Source of the DNA: Beijerinckiaceae bacterium
GTDB taxonomy: Bacteria; Pseudomonadota; Alphaproteobacteria; Rhizobiales; Beijerinckiaceae
Direction of reading: 5' to 3'
Length of the DNA stretch: 64,000 nucleotides
Assembly: GCA_037446355.1 (NCBI GenBank)
Contig: JBBIIT010000003.1
Coordinates: 22,751-86,750, forward strand
Part shown: positions 4,135 through 20,957 of the stretch, one piece after another
How positions within the stretch are numbered: position 1 is the stretch's first letter
How the letters are laid out: each line of letters opens with the position of its first letter
The notes under the pieces: model-generated
The model's database searches: none
The model's input: only the letters and a program-made list of their open reading frames with translations
What the model was told of the DNA's origin: nothing
Program-made: the position numbers and the translations under genes

Positions 4135-4436
4135 CGAAGTCGAGCGCGAAGCCGTCGTCAAATTGCGTGCGCGCCACCTTCTGCGGCTACCGCACGAACT
4201 GCGGGCAATTCCGGGGATCCAGGACTTTAGGGCGACGGCGAGGTCGTCCGCTTTCGTGCGAGGTCCGCCGCGAGTTCCGGCCGCTCTATAAGAACGCAAC
4301 AAATTCAATCTCATGAGACGGCATTACGAATTCGTTAACACTGATTTACATTGGCCAACTAAATATGCTAGCGATGAGCGACAATGCAAAATGCAAACAA
4401 ATGCCGCGATGGCCAAGGGTCATTTGGGGGCCAGGG

Positions 4437-5756
4437 ATGCGTCGTTCGTCTAGGATTTTGGAAATCGCGGTGCTGGCGAGCGTCAGTTTCGGCGGAACAG
4501 TCGCGGTTCGCGCGCAGAATGCGAGCAATGCCGCGCCGGCCTTTGACTGGACCGGATTTTATATCGGCGGCCACATCGCGGAGGATTTCACCAGCACGCT
4601 TTATAAGCGTCCTTTAGATCCGTCGCTCGCCGACACGACGATCGGCTCGATTGGCGACAAGGCGGGCGTCGGCGCCTCCGTCGGATTTAACTACCAGTTT
4701 TCGCGATGGGGGGTCGTCGGCCTCGAAGCGACGGAAACGTGGATGGACGCGCCAGTGCGCGAACTCGGTTCTTCCAACGATTTTCTTGAACATATCGATT
4801 CTGTCGCGGCCGTGAGCGCGCGCGCGGGCCTGCTCGTTCGGCCGGACACGATGGTGTTCGGTTCGGTCGGGCCGGCTTGGATGCGGGTCAATGGCTTCAA
4901 GGGATTTGGCCAATCGATGAACGCCATCGTGCCCGGCGTTCAGCTCGGCGCGGGCTTCGAGACGTTTATCACTCGCAACGTCTCCCTGCGCGTCGAGGGT
5001 TCATATACCGGCGCCACTCAAGCGCTGGTGTTGAATAATTCCTTCGATCACTACTTGCCGTCGATCCTTCAAGTCCAGTTCGGCGCCGAATATAAGTTCG
5101 ATGCGCCGGGCGGCTGGGGTTTCAAAGACGTCGCCGTATCGGATGCTGTCGGCGCGCCGCCGAAATGGACGGGGTTCGAAGTCGGCGGGTTTGCTTCGGT
5201 GAACGGCAATCAAATGGGGTATTCGGACCTCAACCAGGGTGATTCCGGTCCCTATACCCGGTTCGGGATCGGCGGCGGCGCATTCGTCGGCGCAAACTAC
5301 CAGCTCAACGACCGCTTTGTCGTCGGCGCCGAACTCAGCGGAAACTACAATCATGCGCGCCTAGTGAACGCCGCCGGCACGAACGGCTATCTCGGCCCCC
5401 TCTTCGATTTCGCGACGATCGAGAATTTCATGGCCCTGACCGGACGGGTCGGCGCGCTTCTTTCGCCCGGCACGCTCATCTACGTCAAAGCCGGCGGCGC
5501 CTGGGTCCAGACGACGACCGATTTCGGTTACTGGAACAATGTCGCTCCGAACTCGACAGGTTCGCGGACCATGGGCGGCTATCAGGTCGGTTTGGGCGAT
5601 GAGACTTTTATCACGTCGAACGTGAGCTTGCGGTTCGAGACAATTTACACGCACCCCAGCGGCACGATCAGTTTGAACGGTAGCGTCTTTCCGAACCAAT
5701 TCGCGCTGCGTCCGGCCGTTCTTTCCGCGACCAGCGGCGTAGCCTATCATTTTTGA
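4437..5756 (+). CDS. Outer-membrane protein with two tandem Omp25/RopB-like beta-barrel domains
   Basis: Signal peptide ending AVRA-Q. Two similar halves begin DWTGFYIGG and KWTGFEVGG, each with GxxxGxNYQ, xRxGxL...TxxY and LRxE motifs; terminal YHF. ATG 4437 chosen over upstream in-frame starts. Confidence 0.8.
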   Translation: MRRSSRILEIAVLASVSFGGTVAVRAQNASNAAPAFDWTGFYIGGHIAEDFTSTLYKRPLDPSLADTTIGSIGDKAGVGASVGFNYQFSRWGVVGLEATETWMDAPVRELGSSNDFLEHIDSVAAVSARAGLLVRPDTMVFGSVGPAWMRVNGFKGFGQSMNAIVPGVQLGAGFETFITRNVSLRVEGSYTGATQALVLNNSFDHYLPSILQVQFGAEYKFDAPGGWGFKDVAVSDAVGAPPKWTGFEVGGFASVNGNQMGYSDLNQGDSGPYTRFGIGGGAFVGANYQLNDRFVVGAELSGNYNHARLVNAAGTNGYLGPLFDFATIENFMALTGRVGALLSPGTLIYVKAGGAWVQTTTDFGYWNNVAPNSTGSRTMGGYQVGLGDETFITSNVSLRFETIYTHPSGTISLNGSVFPNQFALRPAVLSATSGVAYHF

Positions 5757-5800: not shown

Positions 5801-5880
5801 GTCTTGTGTGCGTTTTCGTGTCGTGACTTTGGTCAATGAGCCGCGCCGCCGCGCACGAAAACTCCGGAGCGAGACTGCCC

Positions 5881-6198
5881 ATGGATAAGACGCCTGCGCC
5901 TTCGGACAGTTCCGCCGTTTCGTCGGATTCGTCGCGGTCCGCCTCCGTGCGTTGGAACGATTCGACGATGGCCACTCACTTCGCAAACGTGGTGAATGTG
6001 CAGAGCACGCGCGAGCAAGTGGACTTGTTTTTTGGCTTGAACCGAACCTGGAACTCCGGTGGCGACGCGCAAGTGACGGTCGATCTGGCGAATCGCATTA
6101 TCCTGACGCCGTTCGCGGCGAAGCGGCTTCTCAGCGTTCTCGGCGGCGTCCTGCGCGAATACGAAGGCCGCTACGGAGCGCTCGATCTCGATCGGTAA
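5881..6198 (+). CDS. DUF3467-family protein
   Basis: STMATHFANVVNVQSTREQVDLFFG and RIILTPFAAKRLLSVL match this family as I recall it; GGAG upstream of ATG 5881. Confidence 0.7.
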   Translation: MDKTPAPSDSSAVSSDSSRSASVRWNDSTMATHFANVVNVQSTREQVDLFFGLNRTWNSGGDAQVTVDLANRIILTPFAAKRLLSVLGGVLREYEGRYGALDLDR

Positions 6199-6204
6199 GC
6201 AGCG

Positions 6205-8070
6205 TTGAACGGCCCTTCGCACAACTGGTCCGAACTGGCGCGGACCGAAGACGCCGGCTCGGCGGCGGGGCGGGACGCCGGATTGTGGAAGCGCCTTGGC
6301 GAGGAAGCCGAACTCGCCGATATCGTCCAAGTCTGGCTGACGTTGCAATGCCAAATGATCGCCGGCGCCGCGCGGGGCGTAGTCTTGCTGCCGGGCGCGG
6401 CCGCGAACAGTTTCGATGTCGCCGCCATATGGCCGGAGGGTTCGGCGCGGTCCTCGACGCTGGCGGAGATCGCGGAACTCGCGCTGCGTGAAAAACGTGG
6501 CGTCGCGGGCGGCGAAGGCGGATCCGGGAGCGGGCAAGTTGCGTTCCCGATTCTGCTCGAGGGGGAGTTGAAGGGCGCGGTCGCCGTGGCGCTGCAAAAC
6601 GCCCGAGGCGACGACCCCAAGAACGCTCTGCGCCAATTGCAGTGGGGGGTCGCTTGGATCCGCGAGAAGCTGGAGCGCCGGCGCGTCGCCGGGTTGGACC
6701 GCCTGCTCGGCAAATCGCGCGCGGCGCTGGACCTGCTGGGCGACGCGCTTGGCCGCGAGGGTTTTGAAGCCGCGGCGATGGCGACGGTCACAGGCCTGGC
6801 GGTCCGCTGCCAATGTTCCCGGGTGAGTCTGGGCGTGCGACGCGGGCATTCGGTCGTAGTGAAGGCCATCTCGCATAGCGCGCAGTTCGGGCGTCGGATG
6901 ATGCTGGTCAGCGGGCTCGCAGCGGCGATGGACGAAGCGCTCGATCAGCGTTGCTTGATCCTTTATCCTGCTCCGGATGAACAGATGCTGGCGACGGCCG
7001 CCCATGCCGAGCTTTCGCGCGCACAGAACGACGGGCATGTCCTGACGATCCCGATGCTCGCCGCGGACAGCTTCGTCGGCGCAATGTCGTTCGAACGCCC
7101 CGCCGACGCGCCCTTCGATCAGAATACGATCGATCTGCTCGAACTCGCGGTGTCGATCGTCGGACCGATTCTGGAGGAGAAGCGTCGCAACGATCGCTGG
7201 CTGATCGCGAAGGCTGGAGAGAGTTTGCGCGTTCAGCTCGCGCGCCTGTTCGGTCCGGGCCATCTCGCGCGCAAGTTGGTCGCGATCGCCTCGATCGCGG
7301 CGGCCCTGTTCCTCTCGCTGGCGCGGTCCGAATACAAGGTCAACGCGGAATCACAGATCGAGGGCCTGATCCGTCGCGCTGTCGTGGCCCCCTATGACGG
7401 CTACATCAAGGACGCGCTGGCGCGCGCCGGCGACAGCGCGAAAGAGGGCGAGGTGCTCGCCGTTCTCGAGGACCGCGACTTGTTGCTCGAACGCCTGAAA
7501 TGGGTGACGGAGCGGCAGCAGCGCCTCTATGAATACGACAAGGCGCTCGCGGCCAGACAACCCGCCGTGGTCAATGTCATTCGAGCGCAAATCGATCAGG
7601 CGGACGCGCAGATCAAGCTGATTGACGAGCAAATCGCGCGCGTCAAACTGCGTTCGCCGATCGACGGTCAGATCGTCTCCGGCGACCTGAGCCAACTGAT
7701 CGGCACGGCGGTTCAGCGCGGACAGACATTGTTCGAGATCGCGCCGTTGGAAGTGTATCGTATCATTCTCGACGTCGACGAACGCGAAGTCGCGGAAATC
7801 GAGCCGGGTCAGCGCGGCCATCTCGTTGTTTCCGCTTTGCCGACGCGCCAGATGCCGTTTGTCGTCGACAAGGTGACGCCGATCGCCGAGGTGCGCGGCG
7901 GCAGAAATGTGTTCCGCGTCGAAGGACGGCTGACCGAAAATCCCCCTGAACTGCGCCCGGGCATGGAAGGCGTCGGAAAGATCGAAATTGGCGAGCGAAA
8001 CATCGCCTGGATCTGGCTGCATCAGTTGATGGACGGGCTGCGTCTGTGGTCGTGGCGCTGGTCGACGTGA
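6205..8070 (+). CDS. GAF-domain-containing HlyD/membrane-fusion protein
   Basis: Two GAF-like segments (VAFPILLEGELKGAVAV; LTIPMLAADSFVGAMSFER), a TM helix (LVAIASIAAALFLSL), a lipoyl half-motif (VVAPYDGYI...GDSAKEGEVL), a coiled coil and LRSPIDGQIVSGDL. TTG start. Confidence 0.85.
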   Translation: MNGPSHNWSELARTEDAGSAAGRDAGLWKRLGEEAELADIVQVWLTLQCQMIAGAARGVVLLPGAAANSFDVAAIWPEGSARSSTLAEIAELALREKRGVAGGEGGSGSGQVAFPILLEGELKGAVAVALQNARGDDPKNALRQLQWGVAWIREKLERRRVAGLDRLLGKSRAALDLLGDALGREGFEAAAMATVTGLAVRCQCSRVSLGVRRGHSVVVKAISHSAQFGRRMMLVSGLAAAMDEALDQRCLILYPAPDEQMLATAAHAELSRAQNDGHVLTIPMLAADSFVGAMSFERPADAPFDQNTIDLLELAVSIVGPILEEKRRNDRWLIAKAGESLRVQLARLFGPGHLARKLVAIASIAAALFLSLARSEYKVNAESQIEGLIRRAVVAPYDGYIKDALARAGDSAKEGEVLAVLEDRDLLLERLKWVTERQQRLYEYDKALAARQPAVVNVIRAQIDQADAQIKLIDEQIARVKLRSPIDGQIVSGDLSQLIGTAVQRGQTLFEIAPLEVYRIILDVDEREVAEIEPGQRGHLVVSALPTRQMPFVVDKVTPIAEVRGGRNVFRVEGRLTENPPELRPGMEGVGKIEIGERNIAWIWLHQLMDGLRLWSWRWST

Positions 8071-8077
8071 GCCCACG

Positions 8078-10225
8078 ATGAGCCGCTCGCTGTTCAGCAG
8101 TTCATGGTATCGCGTTTCCGGTCTGAAGCCGCGCGTACGTTCGCACACGATCATTCATCGCCAAGTGTTCCGCGGCAAGGTCTGGTATGTGCTTCAGGAT
8201 CCGCAGTCCGGCCGATTTCACTCGCTGTCCGAGCTTGCCAACCTGATGGTCTGCCTGATGGACGGGCGGCGAACCGTTCAGGACATCTGGGATGCGGCGG
8301 GGCGCCAGTCCAGCGACGATCCGCCGACGCAGGATGAGACCATTCAGCTCCTCGCCCAGCTTCATAACTCCGACCTGTTGCAAGGCGAGTTTCCGCCGGA
8401 TTTCGACGAGATGGCCCATCGCGCAGAGACGGCCAATCAGCGCCGACTGGTCCAGCAGCTGCGTAACCCGATGGCGGTGCGAGTGCCGTTGTTCGACCCT
8501 AATCGCTTTCTCGACAAAACGCTTCCGCTTGTACGTCCATTGTTCACGACGGCAGGATTTATCGCTTGGCTCGCACTTGTGCTGACAGGGGTCGTGCTCG
8601 CCGCTTTGCACTGGCCTGAACTCACGAGCGACGTTTCCGATCGCGTGCTGACTGCGGAGAACGTGGCGGTCATCATGGCCGTCTATCCGATCGTGAAGAG
8701 CCTGCACGAACTCGGTCACGCCTACGCGACCAAGATTTGGGGCGGCGAGGTCCATGAAGTCGGCTTTATGCTGCTCGTGTTCATACCAGTGCTCTATGTC
8801 GACGCTTCGGCGTCCGCGGCGTTTCGACAAAAGTCGCGGCGCATTGTGGTCGGCGCCGCGGGCATTTTGGTGGAAATGGCGCTGGCGGCCCTCGCGACCC
8901 TAATTTGGCTACAGGGGAGCCCCGGATTGGGTCGAACGGTTGCGTTCAACGTGATGCTAATCGGCGGCGTTTCGACGCTGCTGTTCAATGGCAATCCGCT
9001 GCTGCGCTTCGACGGCTACTACATATTCTCGGATCTGATAGAAATTCCCAACCTTGCCGGCCGCGCCAACGCCTATGTTTTCTACCTCCTCCAGCGTCAT
9101 CTGTTCAGGGTTGACGACGTCGAGACCCCGATCGTGACGCCGAGCGAACGCAAGTGGCTACTGGGTTACGCAGTGCTTTCGTTTGCATATCGAATGCTGG
9201 TTTCGCTGGCGATCGCCCTGTTTCTGGCCACGAAGCTTCCGGCGATCGGGCTTGTCATGGCGTTTTGGTCCCTGACCGCCATCGCGGTTCTGCCGGTGTT
9301 CAAGGGTGTCAAGTATCTCGCCTCGAATCCTAAGTTGAACGGTCAGCGCCGCCGCGCCGTTGGCGTCGTCGCGGGCCTGTCGGCTCTCGTCGCGATTGTG
9401 TTCTTCCTGATTCCGCTGCCCTATTCTACGATAGCCGAGGGAGTCGTCATCGTCCCCGATCAGTCGGAGGTGCGTGCGAAAGCCGACGGATTCGTCGACA
9501 CGGTCGCGGCGGCTGACGGAGAACGCGTCGAGCCAGGCCGAACGCTCGTGGTGCTGGAAGATCCGATTCTGAAAGCCAAGGTCGCCGTGATCGAGGCGCA
9601 ACTGGAAGAGACCCGCCAGCGTTTGGAGGCGGTTCGCGTGCTCGACCGCGTGCAAACGGAAATGTTCCAGGAGCAGGCTGCGAATTTGGCCGAACGGCTT
9701 TCCGTCGCGCGTAAGCAATTGGCCAATCTGGACGTCACGTCGGATCAAGCCGGACGGTTCGTCCCCGCGCATTCGAACGATATGACCGGCAGGTTCGCGC
9801 GGCGCGGCGAATTGCTCGGCTACGTCGTGTCGGATGCGAACCCGGTGGTCCGCGTCTTGGCGCCGCAATCCGACGTTGAGTTGATTGAAAATCCCGACAC
9901 AACGGTGGAAGCGCGCCTGGTCGAGGACGTCGCCCGCGCGCGCGCGGCGAAAATCATCCGGTCCGCGCCCGGCGCGCAGGTCGAAGTGCCGAGCCTCGCG
10001 CTGACGACTCGAGGCGGCGGCGCCATCGCGCTCGATCCGTCCCGCACGCAACGGCCGCAATCGCTGTTCAGCTATTTCCAGCTCGACGTCGAGTTGCTCG
10101 AGCCCAGCGACTCCGGCCGGTTGGGATCGCGCGTCTACGTTCGTTTCAAGCACGGCGACGAGGCTTTGGCCTGGCGCATGTTGCGCTCGGCGCGACAGTT
10201 TTTCCTCGGCCAGTTCCATGTCTGA
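8078..10225 (+). CDS. PqqD-like domain / M50 (site-2) zinc metallopeptidase / HlyD-like fusion membrane protein
   Basis: N-terminal LMDGRRTVQDIW...LLAQLHNSDLL (PqqD-like winged helix). HELGH at 8704-8718 and NPLLRFDGYY at about 8993 supply the M50 zinc ligands. Several TM helices; C-terminal VRAKADGFV lipoyl/hairpin region. Confidence 0.85.
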   Translation: MSRSLFSSSWYRVSGLKPRVRSHTIIHRQVFRGKVWYVLQDPQSGRFHSLSELANLMVCLMDGRRTVQDIWDAAGRQSSDDPPTQDETIQLLAQLHNSDLLQGEFPPDFDEMAHRAETANQRRLVQQLRNPMAVRVPLFDPNRFLDKTLPLVRPLFTTAGFIAWLALVLTGVVLAALHWPELTSDVSDRVLTAENVAVIMAVYPIVKSLHELGHAYATKIWGGEVHEVGFMLLVFIPVLYVDASASAAFRQKSRRIVVGAAGILVEMALAALATLIWLQGSPGLGRTVAFNVMLIGGVSTLLFNGNPLLRFDGYYIFSDLIEIPNLAGRANAYVFYLLQRHLFRVDDVETPIVTPSERKWLLGYAVLSFAYRMLVSLAIALFLATKLPAIGLVMAFWSLTAIAVLPVFKGVKYLASNPKLNGQRRRAVGVVAGLSALVAIVFFLIPLPYSTIAEGVVIVPDQSEVRAKADGFVDTVAAADGERVEPGRTLVVLEDPILKAKVAVIEAQLEETRQRLEAVRVLDRVQTEMFQEQAANLAERLSVARKQLANLDVTSDQAGRFVPAHSNDMTGRFARRGELLGYVVSDANPVVRVLAPQSDVELIENPDTTVEARLVEDVARARAAKIIRSAPGAQVEVPSLALTTRGGGAIALDPSRTQRPQSLFSYFQLDVELLEPSDSGRLGSRVYVRFKHGDEALAWRMLRSARQFFLGQFHV

Positions 10226-12224
10226 CGTGGCGCTGTCCGTACCGGAGCGGTTGTTGAATTTGCCCGCACAGCGGCTTTGCCCGGAAGCGCCGGAACGGAA
10301 GGAAACCAATCTCGAGGGACTAGCGGCGTCGCTCCATTCGCGAGCGGTCGCAGCGATGTCGAGGCGGCGCGCACGATCGCTGCGCCGCATCCTCCCGCTT
10401 GTGAACGCTCATGAGGCCGAGTTCGCGGCCCTCTCCGACTTCGAATTGTTGCCGCGCGCTCGGGAGATAGCAATCGACCTCCGACGCGAGGCCGATTTCT
10501 CCGACGCATTAACGGGGCGCGCGTTTTGCCTGATCCGCGAATTGTCGGCGCGCATTCTCGGCAAGCGGCACTTCGACGTCCAGATCATCGGCGCTTTCGC
10601 TATGGTCAAGGGTATGCTCGCCGAAATGGCGACCGGGGAAGGCAAGACGCTGACCGCGACCCTGGTGGCGGGAACCGCGGGGCTCGCGGGCATTCCCATT
10701 CATGTGGTGACGGTGAACGACTATCTCGCTAGACGCGACGCGGAACTCATGCAGCCCCTCTATCGGGCCTTGGGTTTGAGCGTCGGGATCGTCGTCAGCG
10801 GCCAAAGCTTGCACGAGCGGCAAGCTGCGTATGCATGTGACATCACCTATTGCACCAATAAGGAATTAACCTTCGATTACTTGCGCGATCGCATGTTGCT
10901 CGGCCAAACGGTCGGCGATCTCAAGCTTAAGCTGGAGACGCTTCACAGCGATGCGCCTCGCGCGCGCGAACTGCGAATGCGCGGGCTTCATTTCGCGCTG
11001 GTCGACGAAGCCGACAGCGTGCTGGTCGACGAGGCGCGCACGCCGCTGATCATCTCCGGAGGCGCTGGCGCCGCTATTGGCGAAGAGACCGTCGGCAGCG
11101 CGCTGAAACTCGCATCCGCGATGGAGGCGGGCGTCGATTTCATCGTCTCCACCGAGGATCGAAGGATTTTCCTGACCGTGGCCGGCCAGTCGCGCGTCGA
11201 GCAGTTCGCGAAATCGCGCGCCGGACATTGGCGCAGCGTCGTCAGTCGAGAAGAGCTGGCGCGCCAAGCGCTTGCCGCCCTTCACCTGTTCCACAAGGGC
11301 GAGCAATATGTCGTCGCCGATGGCAAGGTGCAGATCGTCGATGAATATACCGGCCGCATCATGCCGGACCGGCTGTGGAGCGACGGGTTGCACCAGATGA
11401 TCGAACTCAAGGAAGGCTGCGCACTATCGGCGCGGCGCGAAACGCTCGCGCGCATAACCTATCAGCGCTTCTTCCGCCGCTATCGCCGACTGGCCGGCAT
11501 GAGCGGCACGATGCAGCCCGTGGCGGCGGAACTCTGGCGCGTTTATCGGCGTCGCGTAGTGACGATCCCGACCGCGAAGCCGGTGTTGCGTATCCATCGC
11601 CCCGATGTGGTGCTTGCGACCCAGGATGAAAAGTGGCGACGCATCGTCGAGCGCGTGGCGGCCCTCAATGCCGTCGGCGCTCCCGTGCTTATCGGTACGC
11701 GATCCGTCACCGCCTCCGAGCGCGCGAGCGAGATGCTAACCGCGGCGGGCTTTCGACACGAGGTTCTCAATGCGCTGCAAGACAAGCGCGAGGCGGAGAT
11801 CATTGCCGAAGCAGGGCGAAGCGGCCGGATAACGATCGCGACCAACCTCGCGGGACGCGGCACCGACATTCATCTGGGCGAGGGTGTGGCCGCGCTCGGC
11901 GGGCTGCACGTCATCATGACCGAACGCCACGACGCGCGCCGCATCGATCTTCAGCTTGCGGGCCGCGCCGGAAGGCAGGGCGAGCCGGGGTCGTTCGAGG
12001 CGATCCTATCGCTGGAGGATGACTTGATGAACAATGAGAATGGCGTCGCCTTGTCCGGGCTGGCCAAGTGGCTGGCGCGCTATGCGGGCGCCTGGGCGGG
12101 GCGGGGCGCCGCCGAATATGCGCAGAAGCGCGCCGAACGGCTGCACGCGCGGATGCGCGCCGACTTGCTCCGCTCTGATCGATGGCGAAAGCAGACGCTC
12201 GCCTTCACCGGACGGCCCGAGTGA
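10218..12224 (+). CDS. SecA-like DEAD-motor ATPase paralogue, C-terminally truncated (668 aa)
   Basis: MATGEGKT (10626), VTVNDYLARRD, DEADSVLVDEARTPLIISG, IVDEYTGRIMPDRLWSDGLHQ, ATNLAGRGTDI and QLAGRAGRQGEPG. The protein ends shortly after the start of the helical scaffold and overlaps the M50 gene by 8 nt. Confidence 0.9.
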   Translation: MSDVALSVPERLLNLPAQRLCPEAPERKETNLEGLAASLHSRAVAAMSRRRARSLRRILPLVNAHEAEFAALSDFELLPRAREIAIDLRREADFSDALTGRAFCLIRELSARILGKRHFDVQIIGAFAMVKGMLAEMATGEGKTLTATLVAGTAGLAGIPIHVVTVNDYLARRDAELMQPLYRALGLSVGIVVSGQSLHERQAAYACDITYCTNKELTFDYLRDRMLLGQTVGDLKLKLETLHSDAPRARELRMRGLHFALVDEADSVLVDEARTPLIISGGAGAAIGEETVGSALKLASAMEAGVDFIVSTEDRRIFLTVAGQSRVEQFAKSRAGHWRSVVSREELARQALAALHLFHKGEQYVVADGKVQIVDEYTGRIMPDRLWSDGLHQMIELKEGCALSARRETLARITYQRFFRRYRRLAGMSGTMQPVAAELWRVYRRRVVTIPTAKPVLRIHRPDVVLATQDEKWRRIVERVAALNAVGAPVLIGTRSVTASERASEMLTAAGFRHEVLNALQDKREAEIIAEAGRSGRITIATNLAGRGTDIHLGEGVAALGGLHVIMTERHDARRIDLQLAGRAGRQGEPGSFEAILSLEDDLMNNENGVALSGLAKWLARYAGAWAGRGAAEYAQKRAERLHARMRADLLRSDRWRKQTLAFTGRPE

Positions 12225-12232
12225 AGGCGTCA

Positions 12233-13051
12233 TCAGGTCTTGCTGAAAGCCGCGCAGAGATATGTCAAGTGGCCGTTGGCGTGCAGCCAGCGCAAGAGAT
12301 GGCCAGCCGACGGCCGGCGAGGAAACGTTCCCTCGTTTTGCGGCGCGGTGACACGATAGCTTGGCAGGGTCGCCCGCGTCGCGTCGAGCCGCCGCTCGAG
12401 TCGGAGGCCTGCTCGGGCCGCCGCCGAAATTAGCTCCTCCGGTTCGATCCACAATTGCGGCCAGGGTCCAAATTCGCTGCGCAAGATCGCCTCGATGTCG
12501 GGGACGGGCGTCGGAGCTTCGGCCCCGGGCGCGCGCAGCAGGATGTCGGACACCGCAAGCCGGCCGCCCGGACGCAGCACGCGCGCGACTTGATGGAGAA
12601 ACGCCTCGCGAGATCGAAAATGAAACATCGCCTCGATACAGATCGCGCGGTCGAAGCTCGCGGCTTGCAATGGCAACGCGCAGGCGTCGGCCTCGATCAG
12701 AGCGAGCGATCCGTCCCGCATCGGCAATGAACGGCAAATATCGAGTTGGCGCGGGTCGATATTGACCCCGGTGCGCCGCATTTCGCGCCATTGCCCGATC
12801 GCCTCCAGCGCACCGCCGAAGCCGCAACCGACGTCGAGGACATCCTGTTGGTCGCGAAGCGCCGCGAGCTCGATCAGCAAGTCCGTAAGTCGCGCCTGCG
12901 CGTCTTCGAATTCCTGCGCCGAGCAGGGCGTCGAAAGCGGCGGCGGGTCGTCCCAATATCCAAGATGCACGTCGCGCCCGGCATGGCCGCGCCGAAAACC
13001 TTCGATCAGGCCGTCGAAATAGGACGGAACGCGCGGCAATGTCAGCCCCAT
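12233..13051 (-). CDS. Class I SAM-dependent methyltransferase (VHLGYW type, RebM/sterol-MT-like)
   Basis: DVHLGYWD, motif I VLDVGCGFGG, ADACALP, FDRAICIEAMFHF and LRPGGRLAVSD. Start overlaps the stop of the upstream oxygenase gene. Confidence 0.85.
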   Translation of the reverse strand: MGLTLPRVPSYFDGLIEGFRRGHAGRDVHLGYWDDPPPLSTPCSAQEFEDAQARLTDLLIELAALRDQQDVLDVGCGFGGALEAIGQWREMRRTGVNIDPRQLDICRSLPMRDGSLALIEADACALPLQAASFDRAICIEAMFHFRSREAFLHQVARVLRPGGRLAVSDILLRAPGAEAPTPVPDIEAILRSEFGPWPQLWIEPEELISAAARAGLRLERRLDATRATLPSYRVTAPQNEGTFPRRPSAGHLLRWLHANGHLTYLCAAFSKT

Positions 13052-13860
13052 CCGTAAACGCCGAAACCGTCGCTTCGCTCCGCCATGAAACTGCAAGCGG
13101 TCCAGCGCGTCGTCGCGCCGATCACGGGCGTGACGCGGTGCAGGTGATGGCCGGAGTTGAATACGATGAGGTCGCCGGGATCGAGCGTGAACGCGACCTT
13201 CTCCGCGGCGTCAAGGTCCGCGCGGACCGCGTTGCGGTTACTGTCCACGATGCGTTGGCCCGGCGCTTCGGGGTGAATGTTGAAAACCTCCAGCGATCCG
13301 CCCGAGTCGGCCTTCGAAAAGGCGATCACGAACGAGAACAATCGTGGACGGATCATAGGCGTAAGCAGCCGATAGCTTGGCCGCGCCGCCTGCTCGTCGT
13401 CGAAATGGGCGGGAATGTATCCGCCCGGCAAATGGGCGCGGATCGTTGTGAACATATATTGGGATCCCGGCGTTGGCCCCGGCGGCGCGGAATAGGGACG
13501 CCCCTCGTCGAGCGAGGACAGCAGCGCGGTCACGCGCGGCTCCAGCGCGAGCCGCCCGCCCGCCAACCGCGCGAGGCCGTCGCGAAATCCCGGCGTCGCC
13601 GCGAAATAGTCGCGCAGGTCCGGATGGGCCAGATTGAGGTTCGCGCCATAGAAGAAGGCGGCGAACTTGGCGGGAAACTCGGTCTTGATAAGCCCGTGCC
13701 GCTCCGCCGCAAGTTCCGCGCAGATAGTGTCGCAAAGTTCGCGCTCGATCACCCGCTTGACCACGACGCCGTCGATCGCGCGCGCGCGCAAGCGCGACAG
13801 AACGTCCGCGTGCTGGGGCGCCTGACTAGCGTCGAAGGAGACCGTGCGAAAAAATGTCAT
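13042..13860 (-). CDS. 2OG-Fe(II) oxygenase
   Basis: HxD (IPAHFDDE), GGSLEVF, PGDLIVFNSG, HLHRVTPV and RWT: the facial triad plus the 2OG-binding Arg. Confidence 0.8.
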   Translation of the reverse strand: MTFFRTVSFDASQAPQHADVLSRLRARAIDGVVVKRVIERELCDTICAELAAERHGLIKTEFPAKFAAFFYGANLNLAHPDLRDYFAATPGFRDGLARLAGGRLALEPRVTALLSSLDEGRPYSAPPGPTPGSQYMFTTIRAHLPGGYIPAHFDDEQAARPSYRLLTPMIRPRLFSFVIAFSKADSGGSLEVFNIHPEAPGQRIVDSNRNAVRADLDAAEKVAFTLDPGDLIVFNSGHHLHRVTPVIGATTRWTACSFMAERSDGFGVYGWG

Positions 13861-13874
13861 GCGTTGCGTCCGCC

Positions 13875-15212
13875 CTACCTCGCCCCCGGCGGGGGAAACA
13901 CCCAGAAAAACTCGCCCGATCGTCCGCCGACTCGCGCCGCCTCGTCCGTGAGGAACGCGGCCTCTCGCTCGATCGCCCCGCGCGGCCAGCCGAGGCACGA
14001 GCGCATCTTGAGCGATGTCGGATCGTAGTCCAGCAGGTGCTGCGGCGGCGAGCGAACCATCAGCGCCGAGGGCAGTACGACGCAATGATAGACGCGCAGC
14101 GCACACGGCATGCGACGCGCGCGCTCGAAATTGCGACGAAAGCCTTCGGCGTTATCGCCGGGAAGCCCCATGATGATCTCGACCGCCAGCGTCGCGACCT
14201 CGCCGAGTTCGCGCACGTTGTTGTCGAATTTCGCTTCGTCGTATTTGCGGTCGACGTTGGCGAGAACGTCATTGTCGAAGGATTGCAGGCCGATGCCAAC
14301 ATAGGCGTTGCCGACGCTGGCGAGAAAGTCGATATGCTCGCGCCGCACTTTGGCGGGATAGACTTCGCAGATCAGACCACGATCGTTCAGAAATCCGGTT
14401 CGCTGTTGAGCCGCGCGCAGGTTCTGGAACGCGGCCTGATTGAGGTTGAGCCCGGCGTCCGCCAACAGCGCGCCTGTTAGGCCCATCCGTACCATGGAGT
14501 CGAATTCAACTTCCAGGCTCTCTCTCGTGCGCACGCGTTTGGGCGATTCCATCGTGCCCCATTCGCAAAACGAACAGGTGAACGGACAGCCGCGATAGGT
14601 CTGCAACACACCCAGCCCGCCGCGCGGCACCAGGTTCATTTCATAGGGCGACGCGAGAAGGTTGAGATCGCCGAGCGGACGGGCTCGTGTCTCTTTCCAT
14701 GCGCCGTCGACACGGAAGGCCACGCCGGAAATCTGCGCGAGTCCCGCCGGCGCGCGGTCCCGCAATTCGACGATCTCGACAAACGTGTCCTCCCCTTCGT
14801 TGATGACGAGGAGATCGACGGCGGCGCCCTTAGCCCTGTGCGGCTCGTGGTCGAGCATCACGGGGCGAGCAGAAGGCCCGCCAAATACAATCAGGCGCGA
14901 GGGATCGGCTTTCTTCAACAGACCGACCACGTCGAGGAAGAATGGAAACGACCAGAAGAAGGCTGAAATTCCAACAATGTCGGGGTCGAAACGGGCGACC
15001 TCGCCCGCGACCAGCTCGCTCGACTTGTCCCCTGGCGTCAGGTCCCACACCCGCACGTCGAGGCCGGGAAGGGCCGCGCGGCGGATCGCGGCTTCGACCA
15101 TGTAAAGACCAAGATTCGGGATGAACTGCGGCATCGCGGGGTCGCGGTCGGGATAGCGCGCTAGCAACGCGACCCGGCGCCCCGCGCGCGGCGTCTGGCG
15201 CGGAAGGCTCAC
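13875..15212 (-). CDS. Cobalamin-binding radical SAM protein (paralogue 1)
   Basis: B12-binding domain (FDPDIVGISAFFWS, LIVFGGPSAR, LLVINEGE), CPFTCSFC and IIMGLPGD. GTG start at 15212 forms a GTGA overlap with the upstream paralogue. Confidence 0.85.
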   Translation of the reverse strand: MSLPRQTPRAGRRVALLARYPDRDPAMPQFIPNLGLYMVEAAIRRAALPGLDVRVWDLTPGDKSSELVAGEVARFDPDIVGISAFFWSFPFFLDVVGLLKKADPSRLIVFGGPSARPVMLDHEPHRAKGAAVDLLVINEGEDTFVEIVELRDRAPAGLAQISGVAFRVDGAWKETRARPLGDLNLLASPYEMNLVPRGGLGVLQTYRGCPFTCSFCEWGTMESPKRVRTRESLEVEFDSMVRMGLTGALLADAGLNLNQAAFQNLRAAQQRTGFLNDRGLICEVYPAKVRREHIDFLASVGNAYVGIGLQSFDNDVLANVDRKYDEAKFDNNVRELGEVATLAVEIIMGLPGDNAEGFRRNFERARRMPCALRVYHCVVLPSALMVRSPPQHLLDYDPTSLKMRSCLGWPRGAIEREAAFLTDEAARVGGRSGEFFWVFPPPGAR

Positions 15213-16549
15213 GCCGGAACCGCCGTCACGCCCGGGCCGAGGCTGCGTGGAAACGACCACCAGAACCGACCGGAATTGCCGCCTGCTCGGCGTGCCGCGC
15301 GATCGAGTTCCTCGCGCATCGCGCCGATCGCGTCCGCGCTCCAGCCAAGGCACGATTTCATAGCGAGATCGACGGGATGAAATTCGACATTCCACTCCGG
15401 GAGCGCGCGCGTCATCAGCGCATCGGGCAGCACGAGGCAATGATAGACGCGCACGCTCGCGGGAAGGCTTAGCGCATAGCCAAGCGTGCGGCGAAATCCT
15501 TCGGGCGTGTCGCCGGGCAAGCCGAATATGATCTGCAATTCGATGTTGGTTATAGCGGCAAGCTCGCGCACGATGCGTTCGAATCGCGGCGAGTCCGAGG
15601 GCCGTTGATGCAGCCTCAGCACTTCCGGGTCCATCGACTGCATACCGACGCCGAGATAGGCGGGCCCGATCTCGCCGAGGAATTCGAAATGTTCGTCGCG
15701 CACGACGGAGGGATAGATTTCGGCCCAAAACAGCGCCTCACTCAGCGCGCCGGTGCGACGATTGGCTTCGCGCAAATTGCGGAAGGCCTGGAGATTGAGA
15801 TTGAGGCCGGCGTCGAGCAGGAATACCGCCGGCGGCCGCAAGGCTTGAAAGGCCTGCAATTCCCGGGTGAGGTAGTCGACGGAGAAAGTCGACTTGAACT
15901 TGTCGCTCGCGCCCCATTCGCAAAAGCGACACGATAGCGGACATCCGCGATAACTCTCGACGTAGGCGACCTCATTGGGCGCGCATAGACCTATCTGAAA
16001 CGGCGAGGGGATTTGGTTGAGGTCCGCGGCGGCGACGCGGTTGGGAATTTTTCGCCATCCGGCCGCGGCGCGCACGGTGGCGCCGGGCACAGTGGCGAGG
16101 GTTTCGCGCGTGAGTTCGGGCAGGTCCGCCATTTCGCGGAATATGGCTTCGCCGTCGCCCTCGACGATCGCATCGAGATAGCGCGCGGGGTCGCGATAGG
16201 CGTCCAGGTCGAACAGCGCGCGCCGTGCCGAAGGACCGCCGAAAACGATGAGGCAACCGGGTCGCCTGCGTCGTATCTCGCGCGCCACGTCGATGAGACA
16301 GGCGGTCGACCAGACATAAATGGAGAAGCCGACAATCTCGGGTTCGAAGGCCAGAATTTCGCGCGCGTAGCCCGCGACGTCATCTCGTCCGAGATCGATC
16401 AGCTCGACAATATGCGCCGGGCGTTCCGGGTCGCCGACAACGGCCGCCTGAATTCGGCGCACCCCGTAGCTCGGCAGTTCCAGGCGCCCAAGTTCTTCGC
16501 CATCGGGGCGCGGCGTCAGGCAGGCCAAGACTATCCGTCGCGACGCCAC
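15209..16549 (-). CDS. Cobalamin-binding radical SAM protein (paralogue 2)
   Basis: FEPEIVGFSIYVWS, LIVFGGPSAR, IVEGDGE, CPLSCRFC and IIFGLPGD; GGGAG RBS before the GTG. Confidence 0.85.
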   Translation of the reverse strand: MASRRIVLACLTPRPDGEELGRLELPSYGVRRIQAAVVGDPERPAHIVELIDLGRDDVAGYAREILAFEPEIVGFSIYVWSTACLIDVAREIRRRRPGCLIVFGGPSARRALFDLDAYRDPARYLDAIVEGDGEAIFREMADLPELTRETLATVPGATVRAAAGWRKIPNRVAAADLNQIPSPFQIGLCAPNEVAYVESYRGCPLSCRFCEWGASDKFKSTFSVDYLTRELQAFQALRPPAVFLLDAGLNLNLQAFRNLREANRRTGALSEALFWAEIYPSVVRDEHFEFLGEIGPAYLGVGMQSMDPEVLRLHQRPSDSPRFERIVRELAAITNIELQIIFGLPGDTPEGFRRTLGYALSLPASVRVYHCLVLPDALMTRALPEWNVEFHPVDLAMKSCLGWSADAIGAMREELDRAARRAGGNSGRFWWSFPRSLGPGVTAVPA

Positions 16550-16707
16550 TTAATCTCCCGATCCATGCGGATGCCGGCGAGGGTAAGGCGAAGGCTCGGC
16601 CCGCGCAAGGCGCCGACCGCCGCCATCGGGTTTTGCATCGCTCCAGGCCGTGCTAATCACAACCCAGTCGCCGCGGCGCGGCGGATGGACCCAACGAGAC
16701 CCAGCGA

Positions 16708-17571
16708 ATGCTCCCTATTTCGACGCCGCGAAGCCTGCGAGGCTTTTACGTCCTGTCGGCCCTGGCGGCGGCGCCGGGAATGGCGCTAGCCGCACCGGGA
16801 GCATTCGATTGCGTCATGGAGGCCTCGCTGATCGTGAAAGTCGGATCCCCAGTCGCAAGCATCGTCGACGATGTTCAAGTAGATCGCGGAGCGGTGGTCA
16901 AAAGAGGGGACGTGATCGCGCACATCGCCTCTAAGGTCGAGGAATCGGCGGTTGCATACAACAAATTGCGGTCCGAGAGCACGGCGGAAATCGAGGCCAA
17001 GGCGGCGATCCTCGTACAAAAATCCGGAGTGCTCCGCCGAAAGCTTGGTTTGGCCAAGGAGCATGTCGGCGCTTCGCAGGACGTCGAGAACGCGACAGCG
17101 GAGTTCAACGTCGCGAGTCAGGAGCTGGAACTCGCCAAGCTCAATCATCACATGGCCGAAATAGAGTACGAGCGGTCCAAAGCCGAGATGGAGCTGCGCA
17201 CCATCCGAAGCCCCATCGACGGCATCGTGACCCAGCGTTCGATCGGGCCGGGCGAATATTTCCATCAAGAATCGTCGATCGCCACCATCGCTAGGGTCGA
17301 TCCTCTTTACGTCGAAACCTTTCTGCCGGTCAGCCTCTACCAACAGGTGAAGATCGGCGACGTCGCGCTGGTCCATCCCGCCGAGCCGATCGGAGGCGAG
17401 CGCGAAGCGAAAGTCACGGTCGTCGACCAGGTGTTCGACGCGGCGAGCGGCACCTTCGGGGTGCGTTTGGCGCTGCCTAACGCGGACGACGGGCTTCCTG
17501 CGGGACTACGGTGCAAAGTGACTTTCGGCGAAACAAGTGCGGCGCAAGCCTCGACGACGCCGAAACCCTAA
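16708..17571 (+). CDS. Membrane-fusion (RND/HlyD periplasmic adaptor) protein
   Basis: Hydrophobic N-terminus, FDCVMEASLIVKVGSPVASIV, VDRGAVVKRGDVIA, coiled coil, IRSPIDGIVTQR and VFDAASGTFGVRL. Confidence 0.85.
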   Translation: MLPISTPRSLRGFYVLSALAAAPGMALAAPGAFDCVMEASLIVKVGSPVASIVDDVQVDRGAVVKRGDVIAHIASKVEESAVAYNKLRSESTAEIEAKAAILVQKSGVLRRKLGLAKEHVGASQDVENATAEFNVASQELELAKLNHHMAEIEYERSKAEMELRTIRSPIDGIVTQRSIGPGEYFHQESSIATIARVDPLYVETFLPVSLYQQVKIGDVALVHPAEPIGGEREAKVTVVDQVFDAASGTFGVRLALPNADDGLPAGLRCKVTFGETSAAQASTTPKP

Positions 17572-17577: not shown

Positions 17578-18606
17578 ATGAGCAGTCGCGACTATCTCCG
17601 CGTTAACGCCTACTTGACCACGGAGATGGACGCACGCGCGATCCGCAGCGCGCTCGATCTTGGAGTCATCGACACGCTCGCCGAACTTGGGCCCAGCGCG
17701 ATCGACGCGCTCGCGCGGTCGCATCGAATCCATCCGACGGGACTGAAGCTGCTCGCCCAGATGCTTGCGGCGAATGGGGTGGTCCGCTTCGAGGGCGGGA
17801 GCATGGAATTGACGCCGGCGTTCCTGAGCGCGCTGCGGTTTCGCGATCTCCTGGAGTCCCGAATCGCCTTTGCGGACCTAGTTTGGCCAGACATCCACAC
17901 GCTATTCACGCCGCTATTGAACGACTTGCCGCAATTCATGGCGCGCTCAAAAGTGTTCGACCTGTTTCGCTACGATCGCTGCTTCGATCTGACCCCGGAG
18001 AACATCGAGGCGACGCAGAGCTGGACGAAATTCACGACCTGCCTGACCAAGTACGAGGCGGGGCCCGCGTTGGACGAAGTGGGACTCGACGGCGTCGACG
18101 ATCTCATTGACATGGGCGGCAATACCGGCGAATTCGCGTTTCGCGCCTGCCAGCGCAGATCGACGCTGCAAGCGACCGTGGTCGATCTTCCCGTTGTTTG
18201 CGAACTGGGCCGTCGGCGCCTAGCGGGCAGCGACGAGGCGCGGCGCATCGGCTTCTTCCCGACCGACATGCGCGGCGGCGCATTGCCCGCGCCCGCGGAC
18301 CTCGTCTCCTTCAAGTCGGTGCTGCACGACTGGCCCGACGCCGAAGCGCGCCACTTGTTGACGCGCGCCGCGGATCTGGTGCGTCCGGGCGGGCGGCTGT
18401 TGATCTTCGAGCGGGCGCCGATTGACGTCAGCAAGGGTCGTATTCCCTATGCGATGGCGCCCGACCTGGTATTCCTGCATTTTCTGCGTCCTGCGGACCT
18501 CTACTTGCGGACATTGCGCGAGCTTGGGTTTGCGATCGTCACGCATAAGCGCATGGCGCTCGACATGGACTTTCACCTTATCGTCGCGGCGAGACCGCAG
18601 CGCTAG
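17578..18606 (+). CDS. O-methyltransferase family protein (dimerisation domain plus SAM domain)
   Basis: N-terminal AIRSALDLGVIDTL dimerisation helix-turn-helix; DMGGNTG, VVDLP, FKSVLHDWPD and PGGRLLIFE. Confidence 0.85.
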   Translation: MSSRDYLRVNAYLTTEMDARAIRSALDLGVIDTLAELGPSAIDALARSHRIHPTGLKLLAQMLAANGVVRFEGGSMELTPAFLSALRFRDLLESRIAFADLVWPDIHTLFTPLLNDLPQFMARSKVFDLFRYDRCFDLTPENIEATQSWTKFTTCLTKYEAGPALDEVGLDGVDDLIDMGGNTGEFAFRACQRRSTLQATVVDLPVVCELGRRRLAGSDEARRIGFFPTDMRGGALPAPADLVSFKSVLHDWPDAEARHLLTRAADLVRPGGRLLIFERAPIDVSKGRIPYAMAPDLVFLHFLRPADLYLRTLRELGFAIVTHKRMALDMDFHLIVAARPQR

Positions 18607-18639
18607 CGCGCGCGACGATCTCAATCAGAGGGCTGATCG

Positions 18640-20166
18640 ATGTCCGACTTCCGGGGGCAGGCACAAGCGATCGAGCGGGTCGTGATCGTCGGCGGCGGCA
18701 CGGCCGGATGGATGTCCGCGATCTATCTCAATCGCTTCCTGAAGCCGTTGAAGGTCAAAGTGACTTTGGTTGAGTCGCCGACCGTCGGTTCCATCGGCGT
18801 CGGCGAAGCGACGATTCCCTCGCTGGTTGAATTCGTGCGCACCCTCAATCTCGATGAAAAGGAATTCATGCGCCGCTGTTCGGCCACTTTCAAGCTGGCG
18901 ATCAAGTTCGAAGGTTGGGGCGGCGAAGGCTCGAGCTATTGGCACGCTTTCGGGCCTTGCGGCGGGCAATTAAACGGGCTGGACCTTTTTCATTTCTGGA
19001 ATCGGCGACGGATCGAGACGGCGAGCGAACTCAAATACGCGGACTATTCGTTGCAGGCCCTGCTCTGCGAACAATCGAAAGCGCCTTGGCCGATCGAAGG
19101 CGCTTCGCCAATTTCGCAAATGGGGACTTACGCCTACCATCTCGACGCCTCAGCGCTCGCCGAATATCTGCGCGAACGCGCGACCGCCGAAGGCGTGCAT
19201 CACCTGTTCGGCCATGTCCAGGAGGTCCAATTCGGGGCGCGCGGCGACATAGAGAGCCTTGATATCGGCGGCGACCGAACCTTGCAGGGCGATCTCTTCC
19301 TGGATGCGACGGGGTTCTCGGGACGCCTGATCGAGCAGGAGCTTGGCGATCCCTGGATCGATTGGTCGAAATATCTGCTTTGCGACGGCGCGATCGCGAT
19401 GCCGTTGCCGCGCAGCGCCGAATTCCCGCCTTACACGCTATCGAAGGCGGCGGATTCGGGCTGGATGTGGACGATTCCGCTCAACAATCGGGTGGGAAAT
19501 GGTTACGTCTTTTCCCGTGCGCATATTTCCGAGGACGAAGCGACCGCCGCGCTGATCGCCCGATCGGGTTTGCGCCGGGAGCGCGCCGCCGATCCGCGCT
19601 CACTGAAGATCAGGGTCGGGCGCCGCTCAAAATTCTGGGTGCGAAATTGCGTGTCGGTCGGCTTGGCGTCCGGATTCGTCGAACCGCTGGAGTCGACGGG
19701 AATTCACTTCATTTTCAAGACTGCGAAGCAGCTCGTCAAGTTTTGGCCCGACAGCCCGACGCCCGACGCGCTTCGTGACGCCTTCAACGAAGAAATGTCC
19801 GAGCTTTACGACGAGGTTCGTGACTTTATTGTTTTGCACTATTGGCTGGCGCGGCGCGAGGGACCGTTCTGGCGCGACGCGCGAAACGTTCCCCTTAGCT
19901 CCAGCCTCAAGGACCGCATCGCCCGGTTCGACGAGACAGGCCGGATCGAATCCAACCACAAAGCGTTGTTCGCCGACGCCAGTCACTTTTTCATTTATTC
20001 GGGCAACGGCCGCCAACCCCGGCGCATGATCGTCGAAGCGGAATTGGCCAATCGCAACGAAGTGTGGCACGTGCTCGATCGTATCCGCGCCGACAATAGA
20101 GAGTTCGCGCATCGGATGCCCGAGCATAAGGTCTATCTCGAACGGCTGCATCGGACGCCCGTTTGA
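18640..20166 (+). CDS. Flavin-dependent halogenase, tryptophan halogenase family
   Basis: GGGTAG (18691), IGVGEATIP, ATFKLAIKF (catalytic Lys), WMWTIP (WxWxIP at 19462) and GFVEPLESTG. Confidence 0.9.
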   Translation: MSDFRGQAQAIERVVIVGGGTAGWMSAIYLNRFLKPLKVKVTLVESPTVGSIGVGEATIPSLVEFVRTLNLDEKEFMRRCSATFKLAIKFEGWGGEGSSYWHAFGPCGGQLNGLDLFHFWNRRRIETASELKYADYSLQALLCEQSKAPWPIEGASPISQMGTYAYHLDASALAEYLRERATAEGVHHLFGHVQEVQFGARGDIESLDIGGDRTLQGDLFLDATGFSGRLIEQELGDPWIDWSKYLLCDGAIAMPLPRSAEFPPYTLSKAADSGWMWTIPLNNRVGNGYVFSRAHISEDEATAALIARSGLRRERAADPRSLKIRVGRRSKFWVRNCVSVGLASGFVEPLESTGIHFIFKTAKQLVKFWPDSPTPDALRDAFNEEMSELYDEVRDFIVLHYWLARREGPFWRDARNVPLSSSLKDRIARFDETGRIESNHKALFADASHFFIYSGNGRQPRRMIVEAELANRNEVWHVLDRIRADNREFAHRMPEHKVYLERLHRTPV

Positions 20167-20957
20167 TGTCCGGCGCCGATTTGATCGAACTGGTGAAGGC
20201 GCTCAGGGCGCCCTACGGCTTGGAGCGATCCGTCAAGATCGAGTCCGGCGTGTTGTTCGACGACCGTTTTCTGATCAGCGTCCATCGCGATGCGTTGGGC
20301 GTCGATCCTCTCGGAAAGCTCGGGGCGATCGTCGCCGCTCAGGGCGCCCCGCGAGCGGTTGTGCGCGCTTTGGCGCAAGCGCTGCAAGGCGCCGATGTCA
20401 TTCATTTCGGACACGAGACGGACGCCCTCGGCGCTGTCCGCAAGATTTATTTCGAATATGCGGCGGCGGCTCGGCGATCGATGGCGCAAGATCGGCCGGC
20501 GCTGGTTCATTTCGCCTACAAGTGGAAGCCCGGCCGCGAACATGGATTCGCGCAAACGCGATATACTTGGGCGCCGGCGCCGACGCGGCGGGAACTTGAG
20601 GGTCGCGTGAACGCCTTGCTGCCGGTCGGATCGGCGCCGAGGGGCCGCAAAACGGCGCTCGCTTTGCTGGAACTGGCTTGCCGCGCGGCGGAAGCTCGCG
20701 AAATATTGCTGATGGAGGTCGACGAGCCCGGCAATGCCAGGCGTTCTCTCGATATCAACCTGTATGAGGCCGAGCTGCGTCTGCGCGATGTCGGAGATCT
20801 CGTCGCGACGATAGCGAAAGATTTCGCAATTCCCGGAGAACGACGCCAGGCGGTGTTCGCCGATCGCGGCGATCTCCTGCTCGGCCATCTCTCGGCCGGC
20901 GTCGGGCGTGATGGACAGGAATTCGTGACACTATATTATGGAATTGAAGCGCATTGA
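20166..20957 (+). CDS. Hypothetical protein, possible cyanobactin F-family (PagF/LynF-like) prenyltransferase homologue
   Basis: GLERSVKIESGVLFDDRFL resembles the PagF segment I recall as SLEASCKIESDKLIASRFL; C-terminal VTLYY; five beta-hairpin-like segments separated by helices. TGATG coupling to the halogenase. Confidence 0.5.
   Translation: MSGADLIELVKALRAPYGLERSVKIESGVLFDDRFLISVHRDALGVDPLGKLGAIVAAQGAPRAVVRALAQALQGADVIHFGHETDALGAVRKIYFEYAAAARRSMAQDRPALVHFAYKWKPGREHGFAQTRYTWAPAPTRRELEGRVNALLPVGSAPRGRKTALALLELACRAAEAREILLMEVDEPGNARRSLDINLYEAELRLRDVGDLVATIAKDFAIPGERRQAVFADRGDLLLGHLSAGVGRDGQEFVTLYYGIEAH

Follow-up and report, generated by a model that had tools for sequence, protein, structure and literature searches.

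A SecA-like protein, three adaptors and a giant LEPR-XLL protein: an ABC-less candidate export cassette in a Beijerinckiaceae bacterium

How might a giant protein with RTX (repeats-in-toxin) repeats be handled by a locus that encodes three periplasmic adaptors of the HlyD/membrane fusion protein (MFP) type but neither an ATP-binding cassette (ABC) exporter nor a TolC channel? This question is raised by a 64,000-nucleotide stretch of DNA (hereafter the window) from a Beijerinckiaceae bacterium (assembly GCA_037446355.1, contig JBBIIT010000003.1, positions 22,751 to 86,750), which has a G+C content of ~63% and lies on contig C3 of a 3.6-Mb alphaproteobacterial assembly that is 98% complete. A first-pass annotation, made from the letters alone, proposed a distinct secretion architecture in which an adaptor tunnel is energised by a SecA-like motor. 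Our analysis places the locus among the cassettes built around secondary SecA_DEAD proteins, and indicates that it most likely – we hold this with moderate confidence – exports the neighbouring giant LEPR-XLL protein, processes its leader, or both. The link between cassette and giant is drawn from gene content, tight gene packing, intact catalytic motifs, synteny, the recurrent association with LEPR-XLL proteins and a predicted adaptor fold.

This architecture has been published before. From computational work, Kamneva, Poudel and Ward (2015; PLoS One, PMC4452313) described secondary SecA_DEAD proteins without wing or scaffold domain, whose neighbours are a trio of HlyD-domain proteins, of which one has a GAF and another an M50 domain, sometimes an OEP gene, and no ABC transporter, as in the M. 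extorquens AM1 operon META1p2402-2399. They proposed that the SecA-like protein is the ATPase and the M50 protein a possible membrane pore, called the biological role "completely unknown" and named no cargo. The window's locus is of this type, since its genome encodes, besides a canonical SecA on contig C13, a second, short SecA_DEAD protein without wing or scaffold, accompanied by a GAF/HlyD, an M50/HlyD and an HlyD/biotin-lipoyl protein, with no ABC transporter and, as in the published loci, an OEP gene that is present only sometimes in the group. To the published set it adds the LEPR-XLL giant, a DUF3467 protein, a SapC protein, a tandem barrel and a split by tailoring genes. The notion of a distinct architecture is therefore sound in that the system is conserved, ABC-less and equipped with three adaptor lineages, but it is not a new idea. 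What is new here is the tie to a presumed LEPR-XLL cargo, a survey of 47 loci, the displacement of the third adaptor, the tandem barrel and the existence of versions without a SecA-like gene.

The core of the cassette is compact. The plus-strand genes between 4365 and 12224 form a tight row, with gaps of 6-7 nt within 5836-12224, and encode a tandem OmpA-like (OMP_b-brl) outer-membrane protein (4365..5756), a 120-aa DUF3467 protein (5836..6198; PF11950, 59.5 bits), a GAF-MFP adaptor (6205..8070), an adaptor fused to a PqqD-like domain and an M50 metalloprotease (8078..10225; hereafter M50-MFP) and a 668-aa SecA-like protein (10218..12224), the last two genes overlapping by 8 nt. The third adaptor, a short MFP of 287 aa, is encoded further along the same strand (16708..17571). 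A sequence search of the PDB with DUF3467 returned nothing, even at E <=10, which leaves the idea that it is a SecB relative unsupported.

The three HlyD/MFP proteins that the first-pass annotation saw at 6205, 8078 and 16708 are all genuine, as judged by profile matches and, for the second, by AlphaFold and Foldseek, but its description of them as adaptors falls short for the first two, which are fusion proteins. Adaptor 1 (HlyD_3 56 bits, HlyD_D23 50 bits, weak GAF match) has, according to its hydropathy profile, a cytoplasmic GAF-like N-terminal part of ~350 aa, a transmembrane helix at residues 354-372 and a periplasmic MFP domain. Adaptor 2, with matches to PqqD and Peptidase_M50 and weak ones to HlyD, consists of a PqqD-like domain of the leader-binding type, a polytopic metalloprotease of the M50 (site-2 protease) family and an MFP domain in the periplasm; by sequence it is the weakest of the three adaptors. 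Its AlphaFold model (predicted local distance difference test, or pLDDT, 75) shows a beta-strand/helix domain at residues 25-97, ~8 membrane helices between 141 and 444 and a C-terminal adaptor with a two-helix hairpin (496-519 and 524-549, that is 24+26 residues, pLDDT ~90), a lipoyl-like part and a beta-barrel. This adaptor part resembles MexA, AcrA and MacA (Foldseek E ~1e-12, TM-score ~0.6 on target), and its predicted fold is of the TolC/OprM-docking type. The protease motifs are intact (HELGH at residue 210, NPLLRFDG at 306), and both are kept in the distant relatives G185, G327 and G212. Adaptor 3 is periplasmic, with a signal-like N-terminal segment, and reaches the RND-type subfamily TIGR01730 (RND_mfp; 105.7 bits, cut-off 94.9), under which adaptor 1 remains with 78.5 bits. 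Orthologues of the adaptors score 43-126 bits between genomes and paralogues inside one genome <=25 bits; on these comparisons the three are separate old lineages, which fits non-redundant roles, for example in a hetero-oligomer.

The putative motor is shortened, with its ATPase motifs in place. The SecA-like protein (SecA_DEAD 328 bits, SecA_PP_bind 87 bits, P-loop_SecA 182 bits) aligns with residues 19-553 of B. subtilis SecA, the similarity ending at about 553-611. It keeps nucleotide-binding domain (NBD) 1, the preprotein cross-linking domain and NBD2, and stops ~60 residues into the helical scaffold, without wing domain, two-helix finger or C-terminal tail. Walker A (MATGEGKTL), DEAD box (VDEADSVLVDEARTPLIISG), motif V (TNLAGRGTDI) and motif VI (RRIDLQLAGRAGRQGEPG) are all conserved. 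A precedent of sorts is the accessory SecA2 of Gram-positive bacteria and mycobacteria, where an additional SecA paralogue likewise seems to be set aside for particular cargo, but the protein in the window is without the C-terminal third and its host is a Gram-negative alphaproteobacterium. The SecA2 models TIGR03714 (493 against a cut-off of 930), TIGR04221 (437 against 725), TIGR04397 and NF012136 all stay under cut-off on it, and no SecY2/Asp genes were seen among the locus proteins scanned.

Is this arrangement peculiar to the window? A scan of a genome collection with the M50-MFP protein gave 80 loci from Alpha-, Beta- and Gammaproteobacteria, Nitrospirales, Magnetococcales and one metagenome-assembled genome labelled Flavobacteriales; counts below use the 47 loci of >=18 kb. 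GAF-MFP and M50-MFP genes are present in all 47, SecA-like and short MFP genes in 44 each, and a DUF3467 gene in 36, in which it lies directly 5' of the GAF-MFP gene. The tandem-barrel gene was found in 10 and a TolC-family outer-membrane factor (OMF) gene in three, a count made with alphaproteobacterial queries, which may underestimate OMF genes in beta- and gammaproteobacterial loci. A full-length ABC exporter is absent from all 47, nor is there one within 10 kb of the cassette. A locus without ABC exporter and TolC gene is thus the normal state of the clade rather than a feature specific to the window.

More distant relatives qualify the role of the SecA-like protein as the motor, which the first-pass annotation had assigned to it. 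Its ATPase motifs are intact, but it is not universal, for ~20 loci have an OMF, three adaptors and the M50 protease but no SecA-like gene. The M50-MFP fusion occurs in 30 of 401 sampled alphaproteobacterial genomes, and the SecA-like gene is missing in most of the 30. The SecA-less genomes show a different, fixed row, with genes for a TolC-family OMF, a short MFP (~260 aa), an MFP (~465 aa) and the M50-MFP protein (~710 aa), and SecA-less cassettes adjoin LEPR-XLL proteins, several of them RTX-free.

As for the third adaptor, the first-pass annotation had its position right; it is the cassette's own gene, displaced by a four-gene insertion on the minus strand (12233..16549), which encodes a methyltransferase, a WelO5-like 2-oxoglutarate (2OG) enzyme and two B12-radical SAM enzymes (Pfam). 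The short adaptor gene lies directly 3' of the SecA-like gene in loci L001, L002 and L073, one B12-radical SAM gene is inserted between the two in L074, and L082, L083 and L138 share both the window's four-gene insert and its location. The block lies 3' of the short adaptor in L087 and L107, and in L077 only WelO5-like and methyltransferase matches are seen, after the tailoring operon. Judged from these gene orders, the block acts as a movable sub-module. In Devosia and relatives (L093, L094, L104, L105), the short adaptor gene is directly 3' of the M50-MFP gene, and in L094 and L104 the SecA-like gene stands at the far end of the tailoring operon, so the order is flexible while the SecA-like gene stays nearby.

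What, then, would such a cassette act on? The likely cargo is an 11,232-aa protein encoded on the plus strand at 24098..57796. Its residues 1-54 are basic and are followed by LEPRLLL at residues 55-61 (nt 24260-24280); the LEPR-XLL domain NF012209 is matched at residues 53-69 with 21.6 bits (cut-off 17), which makes the protein a member of that family. Its RTX repeats, which the first-pass annotation had recognised, are genuine as well (HemolysinCabind, PF00353, 98.5 bits): 15 nonapeptides lie at ~residues 9600-11000, and a C-terminal region without Pfam match follows. In composition, the giant has zero cysteine, 0.85% Arg and ~66% of residues accounted for by Ala, Gly, Thr, Ser, Val and Asn, and >9,000 residues outside the LEPR-XLL start and the RTX region are without Pfam match. 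Directly 5' of the giant gene is a gene for a SapC-family protein (23218..23982, plus strand; PF07277, 244.8 bits); a SapC gene also precedes the giant gene in L002, and SapC genes adjoin the SecA-like gene in both loci of G212. This last genome is a single alphaproteobacterium with two SecA-type cassettes (on contigs C30 and C8; L033-L036), each with SapC genes, of which the C30 cassette includes a TolC-family gene of its own, along with two SapC paralogues, and adjoins open reading frames (ORFs) of ~1,850 aa (with a LEDRILL start) and 2,500 aa.

The association between cassette and leader extends beyond the window, whose genome has exactly one M50-MFP cassette and one LEPR-XLL giant. Very large ORFs recur beside cassettes, their N-terminus consisting of a basic segment, 20-60 residues long, that leads into LE(P)Rxx(F/L)(D/N)A. 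When the pattern LE.R..[LMFI] was sought within the first 300 residues of ORFs of >=1,200 aa in 22 neighbourhoods, it was found in 13 of the 26 large ORFs near cassettes, against one of 29 in the window's genome, that one being the giant itself. G228 and G075 add two further neighbourhoods with giant ORFs, which begin beyond the DNA retrieved. Four genomes (G185, G045_C6, G327 and G034) have complete LEPR-XLL proteins beside the cassette (~2,200-3,260 aa, stop to stop) with zero RTX nonapeptides, which are therefore not classical type I secretion system (T1SS) cargo. It follows that RTX repeats, on which the first-pass annotation had based its view of the cargo, are not what defines it; the N-terminal LEPR-XLL leader is what tracks with the cassette. 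LEPRxLL N-termini were also reported on the giants Cag_663 and Cag_665 in a 2026 preprint on Chlorochromatium, where sapC and tolC adjoin and export was read as T1SS-like.

That reading brings us to the most serious rival, a classical T1SS that would export the giant C-terminus-first with the help of a TolC paralogue, leaving the cassette only to hold, trim or release the leader. The first-pass annotation was correct that the window contains no ABC exporter and no TolC, since all genome-wide OEP and ABC_membrane matches are on other contigs, and a tblastn search of the window with the genome's T1SS ABCs, TolCs and the cassette OMFs returned only a weak P-loop match (58371-58709). It was also correct about the ABC gene at 1-621, a fragment that matches profile positions 306-510 of NF047930 and represents the second of the ATP-binding domains in an importer ATPase of the sugar/B6 type. 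The search for HlyB- and TolC-type genes in the rest of the genome and in homologous loci, however, gave an answer that cuts both ways: three T1SS ABC/HlyD pairs and three TolCs are present elsewhere in the genome, and none of the related loci has a full-length ABC exporter. The three canonical pairs, on contigs C59, C46 and C34, have HlyD proteins that score 294-380 bits against the TIGR01843 cut-off of 208.65, where the window's adaptors 1 to 3 reach 46.6, 25.1 and 20.1 bits. The ABC protein on C59 carries a long extension at its N-terminus, and the C46 pair adjoins a small RTX protein gene. At C34:4483-11209, in sequence that is readable only in part, genes for two ABC exporters (768 and 560 aa) and for two HlyD-type adaptors (516 and 403 aa) form an unusual row.

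These pairs and TolC paralogues could serve a giant that ends in RTX nonapeptides and a C-terminal region without Pfam match, and the rival is further helped by a cassette with no evident channel, a SecA-like protein without the parts that push substrates through SecY and a GAF domain that suggests regulation. The cassette might then act in retention, release or quality control at the inner membrane, with a logic like the LapG/LapD control of LapA. Nevertheless, this rival has difficulty with the cassettes without a SecA-like gene, where complete LEPR-XLL proteins are RTX-free and where a TolC-family OMF is part of the cassette, which would be needless for processing confined to the inner membrane; moreover, no ABC exporter lies within 10 kb in any of the related loci. 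The RTX-free proteins and the cassette OMFs weigh on this rival as a general rule; for the window's genome itself we consider it unlikely rather than refuted. A complete genome of 2.1 Mb that carries the cassette (G231) speaks for neither side, with no T1SS ABC over the cut-offs of the two models used, TIGR01842 and TIGR01846, but also no giant ORF found near its cassette.

Compared directly with T1SSs (HlyB-HlyD-TolC, LapB-LapC-LapE), the cassette shares alpha-hairpin periplasmic adaptors, a TolC-family exit in the window's relatives and a giant, repetitive RTX cargo. It differs in having no ABC transporter, three different adaptors instead of one, and a membrane protease and a SecA paralogue in the set, while its locus contains neither a dedicated ABC beside an adaptor nor an adaptor at the TIGR01843 level, and what its cargo proteins have in common is an N-terminal leader.

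The mechanism that we favour, in which we infer every transport step, leader cleavage and the choice of outer-membrane partner, would run as follows. In the cytoplasm, the PqqD-like domain and the SecA-like protein, through its preprotein-binding domain, would bind the basic leader with its LEPRLLL motif, ATP hydrolysis would feed the chain to a membrane complex of M50-MFP and GAF-MFP, the M50 site would remove the leader and the three adaptors would bridge the periplasm to a TolC-family channel. This channel would be supplied from elsewhere in the genome or, alternatively, the cassette's own barrel protein might play a part. The strongest form of this scheme is a self-sufficient, ABC-less export pathway, where the SecA paralogue and the protease-adaptor recognise the leader, thread giants N-terminus-first via the three adaptors to a TolC-type channel and clip the leader. 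To this form we give only tentative credence, well short of that accorded to a cassette that exports the giant, processes its leader, or both.

Several observations weigh against a role of the cassette in the export of the giant. First, the giant has C-terminal RTX repeats in a genome with three T1SS ABC/HlyD pairs. Second, no obvious protein-conducting channel is found among the cassette's genes, and the elements with which SecA drives translocation through SecY, the two-helix finger and the scaffold, are missing from its SecA-like protein. Third, the existence of SecA-less cassettes means that an ATP drive by the SecA-like protein is not general. Fourth, a distance of 12 kb, occupied in part by tailoring genes, separates the SecA-like gene from that for the giant. 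Fifth, the genomes compared are kin and the counts not independent, which makes the LEPR-XLL association a pattern rather than statistical proof. Finally, literature searches found no functional study of the cassette, of DUF3467 or of LEPR-XLL, and the export role is thus without experimental support in the literature found.

How would the outer membrane be crossed? The first-pass annotation proposed that TolC is borrowed from elsewhere in the genome, which is reasonable because relatives carry a TolC-family gene in the cassette itself and the predicted adaptor fold is of the kind that docks on TolC/OprM. A genome-wide OEP profile search revealed three TolC-family genes, on contigs C72, C1 and C15 and none in the window. 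The C15 copy has an adaptor match ~1 kb away and the C1 copy one ~8 kb away; none is listed on C72 in the adaptor profile search, and for this reason the orphan copy on C72 is our best guess for the shared channel that the cassette would use. The similarity of these paralogues to cassette-linked OMFs is weak (best pair 25% identical, E ~1e-5), and none is a clear orthologue.

Some part may also be played by the tandem OmpA-like barrel at 4365..5756 (called gene 439 aa, start probably 4437; PF01389, 40 bits). While it was correct that there is no TolC in the 64 kb, the first-pass annotation missed this gene, which belongs to the cassette: it is the first cassette gene in the window's clade and occupies the same position in L002, L073 and L074. 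Each half of the protein opens with a WTGF..GG motif and closes on a terminal Phe. Its AlphaFold model is all-beta, with ~17 strands (pLDDT 72, built from only 9 sequences), and the protein may form one 16-strand barrel or two 8-strand barrels. As a substitute for TolC it was rejected, since Foldseek retrieved generic 14-18-strand barrels with a TM-score of ~0.3 and no TolC-like helices are present.

An entirely different cargo is conceivable, given the company that the cassette keeps. Downstream of the third adaptor, on the plus strand, is a tailoring operon (17578..22836) for an O-methyltransferase, a tryptophan-halogenase family protein, a prenyltransferase-like protein, a hypothetical protein and a radical SAM enzyme (Pfam), two proteins of this operon being without family match in the Pfam scan. 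The five-gene set adjoins the cassette in ~22 of the 47 related loci, mostly in Hyphomicrobiales-type genomes. It often lies between the cassette and the SapC/giant genes. Its recurrent adjacency suggests that the enzymes decorate the giant protein or its leader, but the cassette could instead mature and export a small RiPP (ribosomally synthesised and post-translationally modified peptide) made by these enzymes, the giant being an unrelated neighbour. Besides the radical SAM, halogenase, methyltransferase and prenyltransferase-like genes that flank the cassette, the PqqD-like and M50 parts point in this direction: residues 19-407 of M50-MFP align end to end with NF041824 (daptide intramembrane metalloprotease, daptide_HExxH; 152 bits, cut-off 300), and the YydH/LiaK-type model gives 43 bits. 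Both scores are well under cut-off, and M50-MFP is homologous to daptide protease domains yet outside that family, the mechanistic analogy lying in a leader that is bound and then cleaved within the membrane. In leader-dependent exporters and RiPP leader peptidases (ABC transporters that contain a peptidase; daptide and YydH/LiaK-type M50 enzymes with PqqD-like domains), too, a membrane machine incorporates a leader-binding-type domain and a protease; in the window, however, the fusion partner of the protease is an adaptor, not an ABC transporter, and the presumed substrate has thousands of residues instead of being a short peptide. SecA-less cassettes without tailoring-gene matches (in G185, G327 and others) still adjoin LEPR-XLL proteins, gamma- and betaproteobacterial cassettes are without tailoring-set matches, and no precursor-peptide gene was noticed in the locus, although no search was aimed at one. 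A RiPP as the true product is in our judgement very improbable.

Even less probable, although both are far-fetched, is that M50-MFP is a signalling site-2 protease, with GAF-sensed intramembrane proteolysis controlling expression of the giant gene and the adaptors serving merely as anchors. Membership of the M50/site-2 protease family, intact active-site motifs and a GAF domain on the partner protein would all suit such a role. Against it, no sigma or anti-sigma genes are present among the locus proteins scanned, and signalling alone would hardly account for three conserved adaptors, a SecA paralogue and the OMF seen in relatives.

If the cassette does export, as we favour, this would be a secretion route in which three adaptors, together with a SecA paralogue and a site-2-type protease, take the place of an ABC pump, and the self-sufficient pathway, if true, would amount to a new class of Gram-negative secretion system. 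In any case, the cassette is the most concrete candidate exporter for LEPR-XLL-led proteins of 2,000 to >10,000 residues. The window contributes (i) a genome with one cassette and one giant, (ii) a barrel gene in place of the TolC gene and (iii) tailoring enzymes interleaved with secretion genes. Since culturable methylotrophs (Methylobacterium, Methylorubrum) carry the cassette, these ideas are directly testable.

Two further ORFs flank the genes discussed above. Just 5' of the cassette, an ORF of 300 aa (3414-4316) has zero Pfam/NCBIfam matches and could represent either a chance frame of G+C-rich DNA or an uncharacterised gene. Immediately 3' of the giant gene, 57855-58508 encodes a 2OG-Fe(II) oxygenase (PF13759; TIGR02466-like, under cut-off), which adds to the association of halogenase, SapC and dioxygenase described by Iyer et al. 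(2010; PMC2938197).

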